27,299 nt of DNA from an uncultured archaeon (GCA_964645535.1 CAZYCQ010000022.1:1-27299), one strand, 5' to 3'; shown: positions 16,219-27,299, numbered from the stretch's first letter. Notes: generated from the sequence alone by a model not told the origin. Numbers and translations: made by a program.

Positions 16219-17733
16219 TCAATTGAACAATCGGGTATATTTCTGTTCAAGATAGTTTTTATGGTAATTGGTAGACAGTTGCTGTCCGGTAATTGCCTTG
16301 ATTAGGTCTGGAGGGTCGTATTTGCCTCCCAAAGAAAATGCCTCTTGGGTTAGCCAATCGATGGCTGGTTTCATGTTTCCTTCCCTTAAGGTATCTCTCC
16401 AATCCTTGACGGATTCACTCAGTTTGAAATAGATTTGCGACCCCATAAGGTCTCCCAATCCATACCCTTGAAAATATGCCCAATAGACGCTGTACCAATG
16501 CAGATCCTGCATGACCCCTTCCGTATCGTTCTGAACCTCGATCCCCAAATACTCTGCATATTTGTCGTTCCAGACTTGAGGGAGATCCTCAACATCAATT
16601 TCTCCCCTAAACAACATCCTCTCAATTTCAAAACGTATGATGATGTGTGTCAGATATGTCAATTCGTCTGCCTTCAGTCTACTCGGATTGGGGTTGATGA
16701 GGTTTGTTGCCAGATAGAACTCCTTCCAATCCACTTCTTTCAATGGGCCTTGGATGATCGATTGCAACTTGGGAAACATATATTCCCAAAATTCTGGAAG
16801 TTTTCCGATCTTGTTCTCCGTGAAACGTGAGTAACATTCCCCTATACTTGGATTCCTATACGAATTGATCGGTCTGCCCTCCCATTCCGGTTTTCTGCCA
16901 AGCCTGTCGAGTGCATGCCCAAGTTCATGGCAGGCTGCAAAGATGCTCCGTGTATACCTTGATTCATCATAATTCACCGTGATCCTGACGTCCATGGGTC
17001 CACATCCTATTGTCAGGGGATGTTCCACTTCACCGATCGCTCCTTTTGATTCTTCCCCCTCGAAGGGATATGTGTAAAATCTTGAAATCGTTTTGACTAC
17101 CTCATGCTGTACTGTCTTTGGAACATGATAGTCCAAAAAAGCCGTGTCTATTTCCCTGCTCATTTCCGAATACTTGTTCGTCATGGGTTTCAAATATCCA
17201 ATGGCCTCTGAAAACAGTGATGTGATTTTTGCCGATGTGAACCCCGGTTCTCTGACAAATATCAAGGCCTCAAAGGGATCGTCAATTTCTAAGGCTTTAC
17301 CTATCAGTTCTCCTCTTTGATATGTCAATTCAAAGTTCTTCTTCAATTCAGGAAGCACGATAGAGAAATCCATTTTTGCCTTGGCTTTCTTCCACACCTC
17401 TAATGTGGTATTGGCTTGGGCGGATTGGTTCTTCACAAATTCCTCCGGAAGTGCGGATCCGATCTTGATTGTCCTTTCCAGTATTTCAATGTCCCTCTGC
17501 TGTTCTTCCTCCAAGGGACGCTTTTTTGCATCTTCAATGGCCTGTTTCAATTCATCTGATGTCTGGAGCTTGTGAATCAATTGGCTCAAATAACCTACTT
17601 GGTTTGATCTATACTGAATTCCCATTCTAGGGAGGGTCGTGTTGGTGTCCCAATAAAGGACTGATGAAATTGAGCTTATCAGTTGTATTTCCTCATGGAT
17701 TTTAATCGCTCTTTCATATCCGCCAGCTATCAT
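16219..17733 (-). CDS. Carboxypeptidase, peptidase family M32 (carboxypeptidase Taq-like)
   Basis: LYWD, HPL, DVRIT, HELGH, RLKADELTY..HIIIRFEIE, GVMQDLHW. ATG 17733 is preferred to 17841. Confidence 0.92.
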   Translation of the reverse strand: MIAGGYERAIKIHEEIQLISSISSVLYWDTNTTLPRMGIQYRSNQVGYLSQLIHKLQTSDELKQAIEDAKKRPLEEEQQRDIEILERTIKIGSALPEEFVKNQSAQANTTLEVWKKAKAKMDFSIVLPELKKNFELTYQRGELIGKALEIDDPFEALIFVREPGFTSAKITSLFSEAIGYLKPMTNKYSEMSREIDTAFLDYHVPKTVQHEVVKTISRFYTYPFEGEESKGAIGEVEHPLTIGCGPMDVRITVNYDESRYTRSIFAACHELGHALDRLGRKPEWEGRPINSYRNPSIGECYSRFTENKIGKLPEFWEYMFPKLQSIIQGPLKEVDWKEFYLATNLINPNPSRLKADELTYLTHIIIRFEIERMLFRGEIDVEDLPQVWNDKYAEYLGIEVQNDTEGVMQDLHWYSVYWAYFQGYGLGDLMGSQIYFKLSESVKDWRDTLREGNMKPAIDWLTQEAFSLGGKYDPPDLIKAITGQQLSTNYHKNYLEQKYTRLFN

Positions 17734-17892
17734 ATTGATCACTTTAAGGTGTTGGAAAATGTAATGTTCTCTGAAGGGGTTGGTTGAAAATGTTACTCTT
17801 CGATTCTTGGAATCATGGTACTTTTCCAAAAAATCATTCATCTCTAGTCTTGAAAAGGGAAAAATTCAAATTCCTCCTCCATTAATTCACCT

Positions 17893-18299: not shown

Positions 18300-19022
18300 T
18301 TATTCATCTTCTGCATTTTCCCATTCGACATTGATTTCCTGATCTTCTTCAAGTTCTTCTGCAATTTCCTCTATTTCCTCGCCTACCTCTTCCACGATAT
18401 CTGCAACCGATTCAATGGTCTCATCAATCTGATCCACTGTTTCCTCTATGGCTTCCTCAATATTTTCAATGACCTCTTCAATGATGTCTTGACCGTCCTC
18501 CCCGAACTCATCAAGATCTACCTTGATCTCAAGATTGGCAAACCCTTTCTTCAATTGTTCTCCAATCTTTGCCAAGGCTTCCGCCTTGATTTTCAGCAAC
18601 TTTTCTTTTTCATCGATATTAAGGTCCTTGATATTGATGTGAAGATCCTCAAGTGGATCAAATGCTTTCTCGACCACCTGCATGGCATTTTCCATGACTG
18701 TTGTTACCACCTTTTGGATCTCTGAAATCAGGGGGAATAGTGTGGGAACCACTCCCATGGATGTTTTTAATGCTTGTTCCCTAATTTTCTCCTTGCTTTT
18801 GCGAATATTTTTCCTCGCCTCATCAAGATTTTTTTTCAAATTCTCATTGATCTCCTCCCTGATTTTCTCAGCAAAATCCTCCAGGTCCTCTCCGTCCATT
18901 CCTATTGTTGTCACGGTTTCAGGTTCCATGTGTGGGGGGATTCTCCTATTCTGAACCTCTTCCTTTATCTGGTTGATCCGTTCCCTTATGCGTTCAAGGT
19001 CATCATCAATGGTGCTCATCAC
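18300..19022 (-). CDS. Very acidic coiled-coil protein of unknown function
   Basis: Heptad-like helices with an E/D/I/V-rich C-terminal third; TTTTATAA about 20 nt upstream. Confidence 0.75.
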   Translation of the reverse strand: MMSTIDDDLERIRERINQIKEEVQNRRIPPHMEPETVTTIGMDGEDLEDFAEKIREEINENLKKNLDEARKNIRKSKEKIREQALKTSMGVVPTLFPLISEIQKVVTTVMENAMQVVEKAFDPLEDLHINIKDLNIDEKEKLLKIKAEALAKIGEQLKKGFANLEIKVDLDEFGEDGQDIIEEVIENIEEAIEETVDQIDETIESVADIVEEVGEEIEEIAEELEEDQEINVEWENAEDE

Positions 19023-19139: not shown

Positions 19140-19193
19140 TGATTACTATGATATGTTAATTATAATACATCACTTATCATAGGGGTGCGGCAC

Positions 19194-21788
19194 ATGGTAA
19201 ATCTAAACAAATTCACAACAAAATCACAGGAAGCCATCAGTCAGGCACAGACTTTGGCAACACAGTACGATCACGCATACTTGGACGAGTTCCATCTCGT
19301 CAAGGCTATGATGGATGAGGACAATGCCCTCATCGACCAGATCATCAACAAGGCCGGTATTAATTCCGACCTCTTCTACAACAAGATCAAACAGCGATTG
19401 GAAGGGAAACCCAAGGTTTCCGGGGCATCTCTCCAAATATCGCAGACCTTGAGCAAGATTCTTGCAAATGCCGAAAAGATCGCTCAACAACTCGGTGACC
19501 AATATGTCTCCGTTGATGTCCTCCTGTTAAGTGTCATCAAGGAATCTCAGGACATTCGGAGAATCATCAAGCAGATCAATCCCGGTGTAGACTACGAAGT
19601 CTTCCTCAAGGTGGTCAAGGAAATCAGGGGGACACAAAAAGTGGACAGTCAAGATGCAGAAGAAAAATTCCAGGCATTGGAAAAATACACCATCGATTTC
19701 ACAAAACTCGCAGCAGAAGGAAAACTTGATCCTGTCATCGGCAGGGATGATGAAATAAGACGGGTCATCCATGTTCTTTCACGCAGGACCAAGAACAACC
19801 CTGTGCTCATCGGTGAGCCAGGTGTCGGAAAGACTGCCATTGTTGAAGGGCTTGCCCAAAGAATTGTGAAGGGTGACGTCCCTGAATCACTGCGGGATGT
19901 CCGGCTCCTTGCACTTGATATGGGAAGTCTCATCGCGGGCGCAAAATACCGAGGAGAGTTCGAAGAACGGCTCAAAGCAGTTCTCAATGAAATCGAGCAA
20001 TCCAACGGCAAGATTATCCTCTTCATTGACGAAGCCCACACCATTGTAGGGGCTGGAGCATCTGAAGGTTCATTGGATGCCTCTAACCTGCTGAAACCCA
20101 TGTTGGCTAGGGGTAAACTCCGAACCATCGCGGCAACGACTTACGATGAGTACCGCAAATACTTCGAAAAGGATGCAGCTCTTGAACGTCGATTCCAACC
20201 GGTTTTCGTGGATCAACCCTCTGTCGAGGACACCATTTCCATCCTGAGAGGGCTCAAAGACAAGTATGAGGTCCATCACGGTGTAAGGATCCAAGACAAT
20301 GCCCTAGTGGCCGCTGCCACTCTCTCCCACCGATACATCACCGACAGGTTCCTTCCAGATAAGGCCATTGATCTCATTGATGAAGCTGCATCAAAGATTG
20401 CCATGGAACTTCAATCCATGCCTGAGGAACTTGAGAAAGTCCAAAGACGGATCAACCAGCTTGAGATCGAACGCTCCGTGGTGAAGAAGGAAAGCGATGC
20501 TGCCTCTCAGAGGAGATTGAAGCAGATCGAAGAGGAACTTGAGAAAGAGAAACAGGAGTTTGCCCGAATCAAGGCTCAATGGGAACAGGAAAAAGAGGTC
20601 TTTGATCAGATTGCCAAAATCAAGGGTGAAATCGAGGATCTCAAGATCGAAGCTGAAAGGGCACAACGGGCAGGCGACCTTGAAACTGTCGGTCGCATCA
20701 TGTATGGTCAGATCCCTCAATTGCAGGCCAAATTGGAAGAATTGCAGGCCAAAGCGGATGAGATGCGGAAGAGCGGCAAAACCTTCCTGAGGCAAGAAGT
20801 GAGCGAAGAGGACATTGCCGAAGTTGTTTCACGTTGGACTGGCATCCCGGTGTCCAAGATCACCCAAGAGGAAGCCGACAAGATTCTCCACATGGAGGAG
20901 TACCTACGCAAACGCGTCAAGGGACAGGATGAAGCAATTGAGGCACTGGCCCAAACCATCCGTCGATCCCGAGCTGGGCTATCCTCTGGAGAGAGACCTC
21001 TGGGATCATTCATGTTCCTCGGTCCCACAGGTGTTGGTAAGACTGAGCTGGCAAAGGCATTGGCTGAATTCCTCTTCGACTCAGAGAAATACATGGTTCG
21101 AATTGACATGAGTGAGTATATGGAAAAACATTCCGTAGCTCGGTTAATCGGTGCACCTCCTGGCTATGTAGGTCATGAGGAAGGAGGCCAGTTGACTGAG
21201 GCGGTTCGCAGGCATCCATACTCCGTCATCCTGTTTGACGAGATTGAAAAGGCTCACCAAGATGTCTTCAATATCCTCTTGCAGGTGTTGGATGATGGAA
21301 GGTTGACAGATTCAAAAGGACGTACCGTTGATTTCACCAACACGGTCATTATCTTCACCTCCAACATAGGTAGCCAACTCATCTTCGAGATGACCGGAAG
21401 GGGCGAGAGCTATGAATCCATCAAGAAAGCAGTCACCGATGAATTGAAGCACTTCTTCCGGCCGGAGTTCCTCAACAGGATCGATGAGATCGTTGTCTTC
21501 CACTCCCTCTCAGAGGATCTCATGGTGGATATCGTCAAGATCCAACTTGAAAGACTTTACAAACGTGTGGAGGCACAGGGTCTGAAGCTGAAGGTTGGTG
21601 ATGATGTCATCCATTATCTTGCCAAGGTCGGCTATGATCCTTCCTATGGTGCCCGCCCCTTGAAACGAGCCATCGCCAAGTATCTGGAGACGCCCTTGGC
21701 GAACTATCTCCTGTCTCACGAACTGAAGGAAAACACGGTTCTTGAGGCAAGGATGGATGGTGACAGAGTGGTCATCAGCCATTCATAA
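19194..21788 (+). CDS. clpB: ATP-dependent disaggregase ClpB
   Basis: Clp N domain, NBD1 GEPGVGKT and LFIDE, long coiled-coil M domain, NBD2 GPTGVGKT and [17 protein letters not shown]. Confidence 0.97.
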
Positions 21789-21790
21789 GG

Positions 21791-21824
21791 CCCGCCTCAC
21801 TCTTCAAGAAAAAAGGGGGGAGGG
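21791..21824. terminator. Candidate terminator between convergent clpB and the transglutaminase gene
   Basis: The minus strand reads CCCTCCCCCCTTTTTTCTT just after the stop at 21829; an imperfect hairpin is possible. Confidence 0.4.
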
Positions 21825-21828
21825 ACAC

Positions 21829-22962
21829 TCATTCAATAATATCTTCCATCAGGATTTTCCGGAGTTTTGCTTGTTTTGCCAGATATGCCCTTCTGCCAGC
21901 AAGGGTTGAATAGACGACAAACAGTACAGGAATTGCATTGAGGACGATAAAGACTGCACTTCTTGTCTTTGAAAAGTAACTTATCTCCAAGGAATTCACT
22001 ACAATGCGATATTCATTGAAGACTGTAGGATCGGAGATATTGGCTTTCGGAATCCAGCGGTATGACAGATGTCGATATGGCTTGTCCGGTCCTCTGGTCA
22101 GTGTAATCCGTTTCTCATCGGTTTTTAGCCAATTATCAAAAAAATTGGTGTTTCCCCTTGTTGGATCTGCTGGAAGCATACCCACCCCTTTCACATAGAA
22201 CATCGGATAGGCATGGGCTGCTGCGCCATCATCCGTTCCATTAAATCCTGTTGCAAAATCTGCCAGCCATGCGGTATGCTCAATGGCAGGAATTCCTCGG
22301 GCTCGAGATAAGGCTATGAACAGGGTTGTGTATTCATCACAATCTCCATAACCGTTCCTGAGGGCAAAACTTGCGCCCCTGATCTGGCTCAATAGCTTGT
22401 ACCGTATATAGGTCGATGAAAAGTTGTACGAGAGATAGGCGATATCCAATGGATTGTCGGAATCGGGGAATGTCCCTGCCACACTCTGGACTGCCGGATC
22501 GGTTGTATCCTCCAAGGGATTATATGCCATGAATAGTTTATAGAGGGGGTCGTTTTCATCATATGGAAATATTTTCAGATTGGCATTCACATAATCCAGC
22601 AGGTTAAGCGTCACGTTTGCCTTAATCGTCACCTTGAATGTCTGATTGACCTGAAAATCAGTGAAATCATATTGGATGAAGGAATTGTTGTACTCGTCCG
22701 TGGTTGTGAAATTCGGTGGCACCGAGATTTGTATTCCCTTTACTTCTTGAACCGGTTCCCAACTCTTCAACAGTGCCAATCGGATTGAAACGCGTGTCAG
22801 GTTCAACGGTCCCTCATTCTTGACCACATAGCTGTATTGAAGCTGGAAATCTGCTTTTCCTTGTAGGATATCGTCATTTTCTTCAAGGTAGAGGAAGACA
22901 AACCCACTCATGATAACAAGGAATGCCAAGCCAGCTACAAGAATCTTGTTTTCCAATTTCAT
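21829..22962 (-). CDS. Membrane-anchored transglutaminase-like protein with intact Cys-His-Asp triad
   Basis: GYGDCDEYTTLFIALSRARGIPA, AHAYP, PADPT; N-terminal signal/anchor and C-terminal TM with basic tail; ATGA overlap with the upstream fusion gene. Confidence 0.9.
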   Translation of the reverse strand: MKLENKILVAGLAFLVIMSGFVFLYLEENDDILQGKADFQLQYSYVVKNEGPLNLTRVSIRLALLKSWEPVQEVKGIQISVPPNFTTTDEYNNSFIQYDFTDFQVNQTFKVTIKANVTLNLLDYVNANLKIFPYDENDPLYKLFMAYNPLEDTTDPAVQSVAGTFPDSDNPLDIAYLSYNFSSTYIRYKLLSQIRGASFALRNGYGDCDEYTTLFIALSRARGIPAIEHTAWLADFATGFNGTDDGAAAHAYPMFYVKGVGMLPADPTRGNTNFFDNWLKTDEKRITLTRGPDKPYRHLSYRWIPKANISDPTVFNEYRIVVNSLEISYFSKTRSAVFIVLNAIPVLFVVYSTLAGRRAYLAKQAKLRKILMEDIIE

Positions 22963-25900
22963 TGTTCATCCTCCTGTTTCAGCATTTTGATAGTGCCCTG
23001 CCAATCCTTTTCCTTCCAGACCTTCCCAAGCTTGATCCCCATCGAAGCACATGCCAAAGGCGATTTCAATCTGTAGTCGATGGCAAGTTCCTCAATGAAA
23101 TCAAGTCGGTTCAACAGACTTGCCTGATTGATGTTCTGGATTTCCAATCCAGGTCTTTTGTTTATTTCCAGGACATAGATCTGTGTCTCGTCGCCCCTTT
23201 TTCCGAGGACGATATCCACTCCTGCATATCCCAGTCCACTGGATTTGTGTGCCAAACAGGCCACTGCAAGGATCTGCTTCCAATATGGAATCTTTCGTCC
23301 GATGATCCGTGATCTTGTGTCAGGATGCATTTCAACTGGATGCTGTTTCCATTCGGCATGGAAGATCTCTCCCGTTTCCATATCCACTCCTGCACCAATG
23401 GCTCCCTGTTTGAGGTTTGCCTTTCCATCACTTTCACTTGTGGGAAGTCTTGCCATGGCCATTACCGGTACTCCTCTAAAGACGATGACCCGAATATCTG
23501 GCAATCCTGTAGAAATTTCTGCCATGAAGTCATCAACAACTATCTTTTCCTCAATGATACAGATGTCATTTTCCGCAAGGGTCTGTGTAGAAAGATATTC
23601 CCCTTGGACAATTCTTTGGATCTCATTGGATATGGCCTGTGGTGCATATGTTTCACCGCCTATCAGAAAGTTTCCCCTCTCGTCCCTTTTTTGGACAACT
23701 ATGATCCCCATTCCTCCCAAACTTTGGGTAGGCTTAATGACAAATCCATTCTCAAACAGGCTCTCCTTGACAAGCCGCTCCATAATGGCAGGAATCTCTC
23801 TCATTTCGGTTACAATTCCATAGAGGTCTGGTGTGGGGACATTCCATTTCTCGAATTGAAGCTTCATGTCAAACTTGTTGATAAGCTGAAACACTTCTGG
23901 AGGATTGTATTTTGCGATATAGTTTCGGTTCCTGATGAGAATGCTCAGGGGTTGCTCCCCCTTTTTGAAGAGCCGCATGAACCTTCTTGTGTCCATGAAG
24001 GTATATTTTCTCCCTCTTCCATAGAACAAGATGATCGCAACCAAAAGCACCCAGATTTCTGGTGTCAAGGCAACAAAACGAACCCATGTATCATTGCTCA
24101 TGAGGTAATAGGCTCCCCAAGTAACAACCAGACTTGCAAGAAGGCGAGTGAATGCCATGTAATGGTCGTTTTGCTCGACATTGCCGACGTACCGGTCAGT
24201 GATCCATGGCAGGATGATAATTGGCACGAAAAGGGCTGAACTGAGAAATGGAATTCGGTAGATTTCACCAAGTAGTTCCATCACTCCAAGGTATGTGATA
24301 TTGAAAACCATCATGATCCCAATTCTGAAACCGACAGGGAAACCATAAGGTGATATCAAAACCCTTACAAGATACAGGAGTGTGAAAATGTTCAAAAAGA
24401 GTATCGTGCCCCAGAAGGGACCAATCTGAATCATCGAGATGACGAGAACACTTGGTGCAAAAAGTCCGTATGTCTCCAATCCCAAGGAATACTTGGTGAA
24501 CAAAATAAGAATGATCGCAAGTAGAAACCTGAACAGAAATAGGCTACGTTCCAGTACGAAAGTCGCCTCGAAAAGAAATAATCTCCCAATAGTGGCCAAT
24601 CCAATCATCAGCATGATGACAATAAATGTGTTGAAGATTTCCGTATCCGTCCAGTTCCCCTTTGATTTCGGAGTGTACATGATTTTTATTTCCTCCTTTG
24701 AGTAAGTTCGTGACCTACTGTATTTTGTGATAGCATCGGTCATACCCACAAGGGTCAAAAGATAGGGAATGACCCGTATTCCAAATTCAATCCAGTTTCT
24801 CTGAATTTGGCTTGCTCCTTCAGAAATGCCGATACTGACAAGATAGAACCATTCGGTTTTTGCAATATTGCCGGAATCATCAAACGCGACTATTCTGAAC
24901 TCAACCAATCCCTTTTCCTTGAAAGTACCCAACTCATATTTGAACAGGCCGTTTTCATCATATGTGCCATTAATGGTCATGGATCGGTTTACCGTTGCAG
25001 AATACCAGTTGATCTCAACATATTGAGCGGCAATATGGCTTTCTGGATCAATGATTTTGGCTCTTACAACATAGGTTCCTGAAAATTGCTTATAGTTGTC
25101 AAGATCAGGAATGAAGCTCTGTGTTATGAGAGGGGAAAACACATCTGGTAGTCCACCTTCCACATCTTGATTGGATCTTTCCCCTTCAGTAGCTTCATAT
25201 ATCAACCTCAACGCGAAAAAGGTTGAAGATACCCTTGATGTGAATCCTGGTCTCAACCCATACCCTCCATCCTCGTTTTTCAGGAAGTCGACAAAGGAAA
25301 GCACACTCTCCCAATCTATGCTTGCATTCAGCATTTTCTGAAGTGCAACTGCATGATATGTTGCCTCCATAGTTGGCTGTGTTCTATCAAGTGTATTGAC
25401 ATACCCTCCAGAGGGTTTTCTGTATTGTTCCAAGGTTTGGAGAATCCTTGTCGAATTGACCTGGTAACCCAACCAAAGGAGCAATCGGGTTGCCCTGAAT
25501 GTGGAAATCACCGAGGGTGAGGACAATGGCGAATTCTTGAAAAATCCTGTATTTGGATCTTGTTGCCGGAGAAGAAAATTTTTCAGATTGGTACGATTGA
25601 AGCTAGATGTTTCAAATGCATCAAGCAATTTCAGAATCGACATTCCCCAATAGGTATGGGTGATGTAAGCCAATTTTGCCCCCGGAAATTGGCCAATCCC
25701 TCCAGTTTCCACTTCTGATTTTTCAACGAAGGATACCATCTCTTGGTGATTGAGTAAAGGATCCCCAAGTGCTCGGAGTGCCAAGATTCCATAAAATGTA
25801 TACTTTATCCGTGCCGAAGCTCCTGGTCGTATGCCAAACCCGCCATCATCTGTTGAAAATGCATCCTCTAGAAATTTTCTGACCTGTGGATCTATGATTG

Positions 25901-27083
25901 AGTTGTTTTCCAGCAATCTTGATGCCAAAACAGCCTGTGCAGTGTGGATCATCGTTGGTACATCGCTTGGATAATCTCCGAATCCATAGGTGGGCGTAGG
26001 GGGAAAAAGCACAAATTCTAATGCACCAGAGAGGTCGACCGTATGTGGAAGCAAGCCTAATTTTTGGAGGTTTGCAATTATTCGAATGGAAAAGAAGGTA
26101 CTTTCTATATTTGGGGATGCGTCATTGCTGCTGGAAAGAAATCCAGAATTGGGTTCCTGATTTCCAATGATGTAATTGAACGCATTTTCAAGAAAATCCG
26201 TTGGAAATTCTCCTAAAAGGTTGGGTGCGTTTTCTCTGACCAATAGGTAGTACTCGATTGCCCTGACAGAAAATCCTGTTCGGGGCAGTCCTCCAATGTA
26301 CCCGGCAACTCCTCCGTTAGGGGAAGTCAAGGTGGAAATGAATCGAACAACATTGGTCAGATATGGATCGGTCTGGTTGAGAAGCACAAATGAGGCAAAA
26401 GCATAGTATGAAGCAAGTAGCTCTGCTGTTCCATTGGTCACCTCAGAATATCCACTTCCTGAAGTAATGAAGACAGGTTCCACATAGTTTCCCCTGAGGT
26501 AATCATCTACCCCTGTGGTATTCAGTTGCCGTTCAAAAGACCCAAAATGGTCATTCAACCATTTAGAGATCTGCAGGGCTCGATAAGTAGAAGTCACATC
26601 TGGTACGTCCCAATTCAAAAGGGGAAAGAACCCTCCTTCTGAAGTCTTCAGAAGGTTAAGAAAATCGATGACTTTCTGTGCCTCTGTCTTGTTGAACCAG
26701 TTTGGATATTCTGTCAGGGCGAATAGGCTTATCGCTTGAAAAGTAGACTCCATTGAAGGGCGTGACCCTTTCCAATTGGCCCAATGTCCATTTTCATAAG
26801 CAGATCGCAGGAATTCATTACCTGCCTCTGTGAGATTTGCAATCTGATCCACAAAAATCGGTTCTCCAACTTCCAAAAAGTTGTATATTGAACCCAAAAC
26901 ATAGAAGACATCGTCCATTGCTCTGAATATCTGTGAACCATCGTCTTGTGAGAACTTAATGAAATGCCCTGCATTGAATGTTGGGGTCACTCCTGAAATG
27001 TCACTTGCCCAAACCTCTTGCCTCGGCTCTGCATTCATTGAGAGCGATAGCAGGATGATTATGGCAAGGACTTTGCGACTCAT
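22959..27083 (-). CDS. Fusion: signal peptide + prenyltransferase/squalene-oxidase-type repeats + beta-rich domain + 7TM_transglut/CapC-like membrane domain + alpha-L-glutamate ligase-related (RimK-like) ATP-grasp
   Basis: About 10 repeats of GG(F/Y)..(S/Y)T(F/Y)xA(L/I) at ~25200-26830. Membrane domain with GLETYGLFAPSVL and LFVPIIIL at ~24020-24640. ATP-grasp motifs RNRNYIAKYN, FVIKP..GGMGI, PDIRVIVFRGVPVMAMARLPT.ESDGKANLKQGA, GLGYAGVDIV, LEINKRPGLEIQNIN at ~23100-23945. Confidence 0.88.
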   Translation of the reverse strand: MSRKVLAIIILLSLSMNAEPRQEVWASDISGVTPTFNAGHFIKFSQDDGSQIFRAMDDVFYVLGSIYNFLEVGEPIFVDQIANLTEAGNEFLRSAYENGHWANWKGSRPSMESTFQAISLFALTEYPNWFNKTEAQKVIDFLNLLKTSEGGFFPLLNWDVPDVTSTYRALQISKWLNDHFGSFERQLNTTGVDDYLRGNYVEPVFITSGSGYSEVTNGTAELLASYYAFASFVLLNQTDPYLTNVVRFISTLTSPNGGVAGYIGGLPRTGFSVRAIEYYLLVRENAPNLLGEFPTDFLENAFNYIIGNQEPNSGFLSSSNDASPNIESTFFSIRIIANLQKLGLLPHTVDLSGALEFVLFPPTPTYGFGDYPSDVPTMIHTAQAVLASRLLENNSIIDPQVRKFLEDAFSTDDGGFGIRPGASARIKYTFYGILALRALGDPLLNHQEMVSFVEKSEVETGGIGQFPGAKLAYITHTYWGMSILKLLDAFETSSFNRTNLKNFLLRQQDPNTGFFKNSPLSSPSVISTFRATRLLLWLGYQVNSTRILQTLEQYRKPSGGYVNTLDRTQPTMEATYHAVALQKMLNASIDWESVLSFVDFLKNEDGGYGLRPGFTSRVSSTFFALRLIYEATEGERSNQDVEGGLPDVFSPLITQSFIPDLDNYKQFSGTYVVRAKIIDPESHIAAQYVEINWYSATVNRSMTINGTYDENGLFKYELGTFKEKGLVEFRIVAFDDSGNIAKTEWFYLVSIGISEGASQIQRNWIEFGIRVIPYLLTLVGMTDAITKYSRSRTYSKEEIKIMYTPKSKGNWTDTEIFNTFIVIMLMIGLATIGRLFLFEATFVLERSLFLFRFLLAIILILFTKYSLGLETYGLFAPSVLVISMIQIGPFWGTILFLNIFTLLYLVRVLISPYGFPVGFRIGIMMVFNITYLGVMELLGEIYRIPFLSSALFVPIIILPWITDRYVGNVEQNDHYMAFTRLLASLVVTWGAYYLMSNDTWVRFVALTPEIWVLLVAIILFYGRGRKYTFMDTRRFMRLFKKGEQPLSILIRNRNYIAKYNPPEVFQLINKFDMKLQFEKWNVPTPDLYGIVTEMREIPAIMERLVKESLFENGFVIKPTQSLGGMGIIVVQKRDERGNFLIGGETYAPQAISNEIQRIVQGEYLSTQTLAENDICIIEEKIVVDDFMAEISTGLPDIRVIVFRGVPVMAMARLPTSESDGKANLKQGAIGAGVDMETGEIFHAEWKQHPVEMHPDTRSRIIGRKIPYWKQILAVACLAHKSSGLGYAGVDIVLGKRGDETQIYVLEINKRPGLEIQNINQASLLNRLDFIEELAIDYRLKSPLACASMGIKLGKVWKEKDWQGTIKMLKQEDEQ

Positions 27084-27086
27084 GGC

Positions 27087-27299
27087 TCATCTCCGGATTT
27101 TCAGGATCAAAAGGGTAACCAGCGTGACCCCAATCGACCCTGCAACTACCAATACAAAAATGAGTTGCTGATTGTTTCCTGTTTGAATGGGTTGGGTCGG
27201 TGTTGAATTGACACTTGATGTGCTGGTTGTTGTATTCATCACCGTTTGACTTGTATTGGTGGGCTGTGCTGTGTCCGTTGGCTGGCTTGTATTGGTGGG
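27087..27299 (-). CDS. 3' end of a cell-surface protein: S/T/Q/P-rich linker, TM anchor, basic tail (5' part outside window)
   Basis: Not in the ORF track. Hand translation from 27299: PTNTSQPTDTAQPTNTSQTVMNTTTSTSSVNSTPTQPIQTGNNQQLIFVLVVAGSIGVTLVTLLILKIRR*. The stop lies 3 nt before the fusion ATG. Confidence 0.8.
   Translation of the reverse strand, partial: PTNTSQPTDTAQPTNTSQTVMNTTTSTSSVNSTPTQPIQTGNNQQLIFVLVVAGSIGVTLVTLLILKIRR
27250..27299. repeat. Intragenic repeat with 36-bp period
   Basis: CTTGTATTGGTGGG at 27250-27263 and 27286-27299, encoding PTNTS twice. Confidence 0.7.

Follow-up and report, generated by a model that had tools for sequence, protein, structure and literature searches.

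An archaeal gene cassette joining a membrane-fused ATP-grasp ligase to extracellular-type barrels and a transglutaminase-like enzyme: a candidate counterpart of the bacterial Rlo system

Introduction

What might an archaeon make with an ATP-dependent ligase that is fused to a membrane domain and encoded beside an enzyme of the transglutaminase fold? This question is raised by a locus in an uncultured archaeon (assembly GCA_964645535.1, CAZYCQ010000022.1:1-27299), the whole stretch of 27,299 nucleotides (nt) that was analysed being called here the window. Three genes, called as open reading frames (ORFs) and all on the minus strand, occupy positions 21829-27299, and their host is a Heimdall-type Asgard archaeon. 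Gene 1 encodes a protein with a double alpha/alpha barrel, gene 2 a fusion of a similar barrel with a membrane domain and an ATP-grasp ligase, and gene 3 a transglutaminase-like enzyme. The original prediction for this locus, made from the DNA sequence, held that a cytoplasmic ligase makes a peptide or poly-amino acid, possibly poly-glutamate, that the fused membrane domain exports it, and that the transglutaminase attaches it to surface proteins or cross-links them. As described below, the three genes form a cassette conserved across several archaeal groups, its enzymes are probably related to the bacterial proteins RloB and RloC, and the cassette may act as a trans-membrane machine which ligates inside the cell, passes its product through the membrane and processes it outside.

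Conservation of the cassette

A genome scan returned 43 loci, and all ORFs of 26 of them were clustered. The same arrangement recurs in 24 of these 26, namely a barrel protein, a membrane domain-ATP-grasp protein with or without a barrel of its own, and a transglutaminase-like protein, in the same order, on the same strand and with tight spacing. The groups represented are five: Asgard archaea, Thermoplasmatota, Woesearchaeota, Micrarchaeota and Thaumarchaeota. Only two widely shared families emerged from the clustering (barrel/ligase and transglutaminase), and no other neighbour is conserved among the 26 loci. Wherever a membrane-ligase locus has enough flanking sequence, the transglutaminase-like gene lies directly downstream on the same strand, the exception being Natronomonas. 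This cultured haloarchaeon (Natronomonas sp. EA1, L025:9587-11893) encodes a 768-amino acid (aa) protein with a seven-transmembrane (7TM) domain and an ATP-grasp domain, which has a different N-terminal region and no adjoining transglutaminase or barrel gene.

In a survey of 400 Asgard genomes, the membrane-ligase was found in 17. Strong transglutaminase orthologues (E 1e-46 or better) are present in 16 Asgard genomes, all of them among the ligase-bearing 17, and in 14 cases the two genes adjoin on one contig; in the seventeenth ligase-bearing genome there is no more than a truncated ligase, at the end of a contig. The genes that the original prediction placed in one pathway are therefore co-conserved, both in domain architecture and in synteny. 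They are also closely coupled in the window, where the junction sequences agree with the 3-nt gap and the ATGA overlap first noticed there: TGA-GCC-ATG joins genes 1 and 2, and genes 2 and 3 share 4 nt. The three genes are thus predicted to form one operon.

The architecture of the ligase gene varies between groups. A protein search returned about 28 clusters of full-length homologues, 1339-1509 aa long, that match the three Pfam families of gene 2; where these carry the name of an organism, it belongs to the Odin-, Thor- or Heimdallarchaeota. Thermoplasmatota, Woesearchaeota and Micrarchaeota have one gene for a barrel protein of 890-1004 aa and another for a membrane-ligase of 540-617 aa; Heimdall/Thor-type loci have a second barrel fused to the ligase, and a few Asgard loci are split. 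One Heimdall-type locus (L013:1214-5387), for instance, has an ORF of 823 aa for the barrel part and another of 565 aa for the membrane-ligase part, and metagenomes hold many 7TM-ATP-grasp proteins of about 540-590 aa, including Asgard forms of about 560 aa, so fused and split forms coexist within the clade. A barrel tree (quick search, midpoint root) resolves fused barrels, free Asgard barrels and free barrels of other archaea into three well-supported groups, in which the free Asgard barrels adjoin those of other archaea and the branching of fused and free Asgard barrels runs in parallel.

The ATP-grasp ligase

The C-terminal part of gene 2 matches PF14397 over residues 1051-1331 with 187.5 bits (cut-off 31.4). 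Its nearest solved folds (Foldseek, VIA) are ArgX/LysX (Z 16.5) and RimK (Z 15.9), and the N-terminal, central and C-terminal subdomains all match. RimK equivalog scores lie far under their cut-off and a phmmer search of the PDB with the ATP-grasp region gave no match, the link to RimK and LysX coming from profile and fold searches only. Invariant in 22 Asgard sequences and in 32 mixed archaeal and bacterial ones are K1117, the G1123-G1126 loop, E1178, D1290, E1306 and N1308. With its lysine, its glycine-rich loop and its Asp/Glu/Asn metal ligands kept, the domain is catalytically equipped, and it folds like RimK, LysX and ArgX, in support of the cytoplasmic ligase of the original prediction. 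The likeness to the RimK/RimB and LysX/ArgX systems extends structurally over the whole ligase domain and includes the ATP and metal motifs. RimK and LysX/ArgX are, however, soluble enzymes with known protein substrates (S6, LysW), whereas the cassette ligase is membrane-fused and its sequence similarity to them is weak.

ArgX/LysX and RimK act on the C-terminal carboxylates of proteins. Other close relatives of the cassette ligase, known from metagenomes (P0043-P0081), are fused to a PF05618 retropepsin-like protease and/or a PF08014 MATCAP carboxypeptidase. Together with the ArgX/LysX/RimK folds, these peptidase-fused relatives favour peptide chemistry at a C-terminus. The PF05618 and PF08014 fusions also recall the ligase/peptidase pairs TTL/MATCAP and RimK/RimB.

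The transglutaminase-like enzyme and its nucleophile

Gene 3 matches PF01841 (37.3 bits, cut-off 23). The closest solved sequence relative of its core lies in TgpA of Pseudomonas aeruginosa (PDB 6g49), which, like other membrane-anchored bacterial transglutaminase-like proteins, differs in domain context and partners and resembles gene 3 in the core only (E 1.9e-7). When gene 3 is aligned with the TgpA transglutaminase domain, the catalytic Cys, His and Asp of the latter correspond to C208, H250 and D266. With a hydrophobic segment at each end and this triad, gene 3 agrees with its first description as a doubly anchored transglutaminase-like protein with intact catalytic residues. Its second helix is followed by a basic, cytoplasmic tail, which places the catalytic domain on the other side of the membrane, so that the ectodomain should face outwards.

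The nucleophile itself is not constant. Among 25 cassette orthologues His and Asp are kept throughout, and the nucleophile column holds Cys in 13, all of Heimdall/Thor type, and Ser in the other 12, which come from Thermoplasmatota, Woesearchaeota, Micrarchaeota, Thaumarchaeota and one locus of the Asgard group Promethearchaeota. Papain-like folds with serine in this place are known, and they may still be active. A swap of Cys and Ser beside invariant His and Asp argues for a conserved catalytic site, and it makes classical thioester transamidation less likely as the reaction common to all forms. This natural swap provides a ready test of whether papain/transglutaminase folds work with serine.

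The tail of gene 3 (window positions 21829-21900) also shows a pattern. In Asgard orthologues it consists of a basic helix followed by L-L-x-P/D/E near the C-terminus, and in the window it ends in Glu; Ser-type orthologues have a short basic tail only. The conserved Asgard tail may be a docking site for the ligase or a substrate of it.

The membrane domain and its topology

PF14402 (7TM_transglut) matches gene 2 over residues 855-1038. The membrane domain is composed, in order, of an anchor-like helix (TM0), a basic cytoplasmic loop, one extra helix and the seven-helix 7TM_transglut core, and in a model of residues 766-1374 (609 residues; pLDDT 88, pTM 0.82) the membrane domain is helical and the ATP-grasp complete. 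TM0 (residues 767-787) is only moderately hydrophobic in the window; its hydropathy (Kyte-Doolittle, KD) is at least 1.68 in 20 of 22 homologues, where it is always followed by 4-10 Lys or Arg residues. In a helix-by-helix alignment, the core shared with bacterial transglutaminase-7TM-ATP-grasp fusions begins one helix later. A seven-helix topology with the helix at 767-796 as a non-membrane linker was ruled out by the hydrophobicity of the homologues, the basic loop and the bacterial register. We infer nine helices for gene 2, with the N-terminus and barrels outside and the C-terminus and ligase inside; by the same reckoning unfused archaeal forms would have eight helices and bacterial forms seven. 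TM0 resembles an anchor kept from a free, membrane-bound barrel protein.

The distribution of N-glycosylation sequons fits this orientation of barrels, transglutaminase and ligase, as they are enriched in the predicted ectodomains (11 in the barrels versus 6.8 expected, and 8 in the transglutaminase ectodomain versus 3.0 expected) and the ATP-grasp has none. Within the 7TM core, the most conserved residues lie at both membrane faces; invariant are E936, E940, D998 and E1009 on the outer side and R920, D963 and R964 on the inner.

The barrel proteins

Beside PF14402 and PF14397, gene 2 matches the prenyltransferase-type repeats of PF00432. The original prediction had recognized in the 1374-aa fusion the membrane domain and the ATP-grasp, both of which stand, and had overlooked an extracellular double barrel that makes up half of the protein. 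In the AF2 model of residues 20-765 (pLDDT 90, pTM 0.87), about 24 helices are followed by a beta-sandwich. The best Foldseek matches of the ectodomain are the beta subunits of RabGGTase and GGTase-III (target TM 0.7; root-mean-square deviation (rmsd) 2.1 A over about 265 columns), and a PDB profile search with the ectodomain agrees on the prenyltransferase fold (E 4e-17). Two-barrel class II cyclases superpose loosely, with an rmsd of 11-13 A. Like the beta subunits of protein prenyltransferases and like class II terpene cyclases, the cassette barrels have PF00432 repeats and an alpha/alpha barrel fold; as in the cyclases, there are two barrels. The known enzymes, in contrast, carry a Zn site (Asp, Cys, His) or a DxDD motif, and the cassette barrels have neither and are predicted to be extracellular. 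Protein prenyltransferases are also cytosolic heterodimers with an alpha subunit, and no such partner was seen for the cassette barrels, though no search was aimed at one.

A motif check of the gene 2 ectodomain found no Cys (there is none in residues 1-1174), no DxDD or related motif and no CxEQ. Three enzymatic or reactive roles were ruled out accordingly: protein prenyltransferase, as the absence of Cys leaves no Zn site and the barrel is predicted to be extracellular; class II terpene cyclase, for the missing DxDD and the loose two-barrel superposition; and a thioester domain of the alpha-2-macroglobulin or complement type, for the missing Cys and CxEQ. Since Cys, DxDD and CxEQ are all lacking, the barrels are most likely binding or scaffold modules and not enzymes. 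Use of the prenyltransferase fold outside the cell would be unusual.

The N-terminal half of gene 2 is paralogous to the barrel of gene 1. The part of gene 1 inside the window is a fragment of 70 aa, comprising a Ser/Thr/Gln/Pro-rich stalk with 12-aa PTDTAQPTNTSQ-type tandem repeats (36-nt DNA unit), one C-terminal transmembrane (TM) helix and a KIRR tail. A scaffold gap of 100 N at the window edge (contig positions 27300-27399; L045:1397-1496) falls within the tandem repeat, and the gene resumes past the gap up to an ATG at contig position 29689. The stretch that precedes the gap in the coding direction encodes 763 aa with a signal peptide, a PF00432 double barrel (E 1.9e-61) and a beta domain; the product has at least 830 aa, and the reading frames on the two sides of the gap disagree. 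Orthologues at other Asgard loci have the same layout in 680-837 aa. The gene 1 product had been described as a TM-anchored surface protein rich in Ser, Thr and Gln, which is correct for the tail, but the protein is not small, this segment being the end of a prenyltransferase-fold double-barrel protein. Orthologous stalks are Ser/Thr-rich and often without Gln, and a Gln-rich stalk as a conserved transglutaminase substrate was ruled out on that account.

Relation to the bacterial Rlo system

Bacterial genes of this kind are reportedly first described in their association by Iyer et al. in 2009. The rloABC operon of P. aeruginosa encodes a secreted retropepsin-like protease (RloA), an inactive-transglutaminase-7TM protein (RloB) and an ATP-grasp protein (RloC), and protease-less Pseudomonas mutants, which show osmotic, antibiotic, biofilm and shape defects, are rescued if rloB or rloC is lost as well (bioRxiv 10.1101/2025.03.18.643919). 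The rescue fits a product of RloB and RloC that needs processing outside the cytoplasm. The proteobacterial parallel drawn in the original prediction is real and corresponds to this operon. RloABC (families PF14400/PF14402/PF14397; NF052267, TIGR02291) and the archaeal cassette both encode together a RimK-related ATP-grasp, a 7TM_transglut core and a module of beta-sandwich and transglutaminase fold. The gene 3 family, beta-sandwich and core included, aligns with the N-terminal periplasmic module of bacterial transglutaminase-7TM-ATP-grasp fusions (hhalign 99%, E 4e-18), and the archaeal transglutaminase is thus homologous to the RloB-type ectodomain.

The two systems differ in several respects. 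In archaea the ligase, and not the transglutaminase module, carries the 7TM core; this module forms a protein of its own, anchored at both ends, which keeps Cys-His-Asp, whereas RloB is called inactive; and two predicted extracellular double barrels of prenyltransferase fold are added. An RloA-type protease (PF05618) was found neither in the 26 clustered loci nor in the genome to which the window belongs (89% complete). The cassette is thus a probable archaeal counterpart of RloB and RloC, cut at a different place, without the RloA protease and with barrels gained.

Close to the cassette, too, are bacterial single-chain transglutaminase-7TM-ATP-grasp proteins of about 820 aa (e.g. from Cellvibrionaceae; P0032-P0054), which have the same three modules and are 25-32% identical to the archaeal 7TM and ATP-grasp parts, but hold all modules in one chain and have no barrels. 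Cys and His are invariant in their transglutaminase module, and the label 'inactive' may be wrong for this subgroup. In the searchable literature no description of the archaeal cassette was found: the Pfam names and accessions are absent, and Asgard, transglutaminase and ATP-grasp co-occur only in a paper on pseudomurein. The archaeal form is therefore new to the literature searched, and the bacterial Rlo system is already known and poorly understood.

A trans-membrane machine as the favoured reading

What, then, would the cassette do? A machine that ligates inside, passes through and processes outside is the reading that we tentatively favour, and it ranks above all its rivals. The ligase would use ATP to add one or more amino acids, glutamate being the best guess by family, to the carboxylate of a peptide-like substrate at the membrane. 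The seven-helix core would pass this product to the outside or couple it there. The transglutaminase-fold enzyme would then process it through an acyl-enzyme intermediate, either by transfer to an acceptor or by hydrolysis, and so stand in for the missing RloA protease, with the barrels serving as binding or scaffold modules. The archaeal cassette in this way informs the Rlo problem, as ligase and 7TM core form one chain, the enzyme outside has its triad intact and RloA is missing, a combination which supports the idea of a product made inside and processed outside. The cassette is, besides, a candidate surface-modification machine for Asgard archaea, Thermoplasmatota and the DPANN groups Woesearchaeota and Micrarchaeota, whose envelopes are barely known. 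The poly-gamma-glutamate (Pgs/Cap) and pseudomurein pathways also have a membrane-bound, ATP-dependent amide ligase inside, a passage, and a papain-fold enzyme or transpeptidase outside; the likeness is one of analogy only. The cassette has no homology to PgsB or to Mur-type ligases, and wall-less archaea such as these are not known to make a polymer.

Several points weigh against the favoured reading. For no member, whether from bacteria or from archaea, is a substrate, a product or a transport activity known (bioRxiv 10.1101/2025.03.18.643919). A transporter role for the seven-helix core is pure inference, and the structural match lists for the 609-residue model are filled by the ATP-grasp. 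Both curated NCBIfam cut-offs are missed by gene 2: TIGR02291 scores 229 bits, under its equivalog cut-off of 314, and NF052267, which models full-length RloB, gives 27.6 bits versus a cut-off of 900 in a partial match on the 7TM part. The patchy spread, with the 17 of 400 Asgard genomes given above, marks an accessory function. Finally, the Ser forms of gene 3 imply a different chemistry or an ectodomain whose role is in part structural.

Alternative explanations

The version closest to the original prediction, in which a homopolymer such as poly-glutamate would be the product of the ligase, with the membrane domain as its exporter and the transglutaminase as the enzyme that cross-links it covalently to surface proteins such as the Ser/Thr/Gln-rich stalk, is unlikely. 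It draws on RimK, one of the two nearest folds, which makes poly-alpha-glutamate, on the Gln-rich stalk and intact Cys-His-Asp triad in the window, and on the exported archaeal transglutaminases that have been proposed as pseudomurein cross-linkers. The stalk glutamines are not kept in orthologues, however, the clade with a Ser nucleophile speaks against classical thioester transamidation as a shared function, the papain-like/transglutaminase fold occurs in proteases as often as in cross-linkers, and no acceptor has been identified.

No more probable is control from the outside in, by which the ectodomains would bind a ligand of the envelope or environment, the 7TM domain would relay the signal and the ATP-grasp would modify a cytoplasmic target, with no export at all. 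The ligase is indeed hard-wired to a 7TM domain with its most conserved residues at both faces, RimK and LysX relatives modify cytoplasmic proteins (RimK, for example, ribosomal protein S6), and the Rlo phenotypes are pleiotropic stress phenotypes; but this explanation leaves without a purpose the invariant outside triad, be it with Cys or Ser, and does not account for the rescue of secreted-protease loss by loss of RloB or RloC in Pseudomonas.

A lipid- or glycan-linked substrate has slightly poorer prospects. Here the ATP-grasp would amidate a carboxylate, either of a sugar acid carried by an isoprenoid or of a lipid head group; the membrane domain would flip the amidated molecule, the barrels would hold the isoprenoid carrier and the transglutaminase-like enzyme would transfer the cargo. 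The name that Pfam gives to PF14397 points to a link with sugar transfer, yet the closest ATP-grasp relatives are fused to peptidases and not to sugar enzymes, and no glycosyltransferase or other glycan gene is conserved beside the cassette. Likewise, the solved proteins most like the barrels bind isoprenoid diphosphates, and archaeal lipids and carriers are isoprenoid, but the barrels have no Cys, hence no Zn ligands, and no DxDD.

More doubtful again is a fuller version of the make-pass-process machine, a self-contained peptide-envelope pathway for archaea without a classical wall, in which the ligase would build a short peptide or poly-amino acid on a membrane carrier, possibly an isoprenoid, the core would flip it, the barrels would hold it, and the Cys/Ser enzyme would transpeptidate it onto surface-protein stalks. 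If true, this pathway would parallel murein or pseudomurein assembly in minimal form and would explain what the bacterial RloB and RloC make.

Improbable even beside these is modification of a partner's tail, by which the ligase would extend or tag the cytoplasmic C-terminus of the transglutaminase-like or the barrel protein, as RimK does with S6, and thereby control assembly or turnover of the complex. LysX/ArgX and RimK do act on protein C-termini, and the Asgard gene 3 tails are conserved, that in the window with a final Glu; against this, the C-terminal residue is not conserved, the tails of the Ser clade are short and basic, and the last residue of the barrel tails is Arg or Lys.

That unrelated genes for membrane and surface proteins lie side by side by chance is refuted by synteny, given the same order, strand and spacing in 24 of 26 loci of five archaeal groups with variable flanks, the perfect co-occurrence in the 400-genome survey and the fused and free barrel trees that mirror each other.

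Features of the locus and flanking genes

The features of the cassette within the window are collected in Table 1.

Table 1. Positions of cassette features in the window (residue numbers refer to the respective protein).
Feature	Position	Strand	Remark
Gene 1, 3' end	27087-27299	-	Free barrel protein; open at window end
Gene 2	22959-27083	-	1374-aa fusion of barrel, nine-TM domain and ATP-grasp (predicted)
Gene 2 signal peptide (residues 1-19)	27027-27083	-	Predicted by eye: basic n-region, then hydrophobic core
Gene 2 double alpha/alpha barrel (residues ~38-633)	25185-26972	-	Prenyltransferase-beta / class II terpene-cyclase fold
Gene 2 beta-sandwich domain (residues 652-751)	24831-25130	-	Between barrels and membrane; from secondary structure of the model
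Gene 2 membrane domain (residues 767-1024)	24012-24785	-	PF14402, 50.5 bits (cut-off 25)
Gene 2 cytoplasmic ATP-grasp ligase domain (residues ~1027-1335)	23079-24005	-	RimK/LysX/ArgX type
Gene 3	21829-22962	-	377-aa transglutaminase-like protein
Gene 3 N-terminal TM (residues 7-25)	22888-22944	-	Hydrophobic segment, followed by beta-sandwich
Gene 3 transglutaminase core	22162-22458	-	PF01841
C208 codon	22339-22341	-	Predicted nucleophile; only Cys in the gene 3 protein
H250 codon	22213-22215	-	Invariant in 25/25 cassette orthologues
D266 codon	22165-22167	-	Invariant in 25/25 cassette orthologues
Gene 3 C-terminal TM (residues 336-354)	21901-21957	-	Hydrophobic segment, followed by basic cytoplasmic tail
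T-rich tract	21806-21814	-	Directly past gene 3 stop

About 25 nt ahead of the gene 1 ATG there is a TATA-like TTTAAAT, and the T-rich tract past gene 3 is a plausible archaeal terminator. Beyond the start of gene 1 there is a divergent uvrA, and downstream of the cassette a convergent clpB (19185-21788, plus strand) which ends at 21788; with unrelated housekeeping genes on both flanks, the cassette is bounded as a unit. Neither clpB nor two further genes on its far side, a 240-aa helical protein and an M32 carboxypeptidase, are kept beside the cassette in other loci. The helical protein (18300-19022, minus strand) has weak, sub-threshold matches to apolipoprotein families, and the M32 carboxypeptidase gene lies at 16219-17841 on the minus strand.

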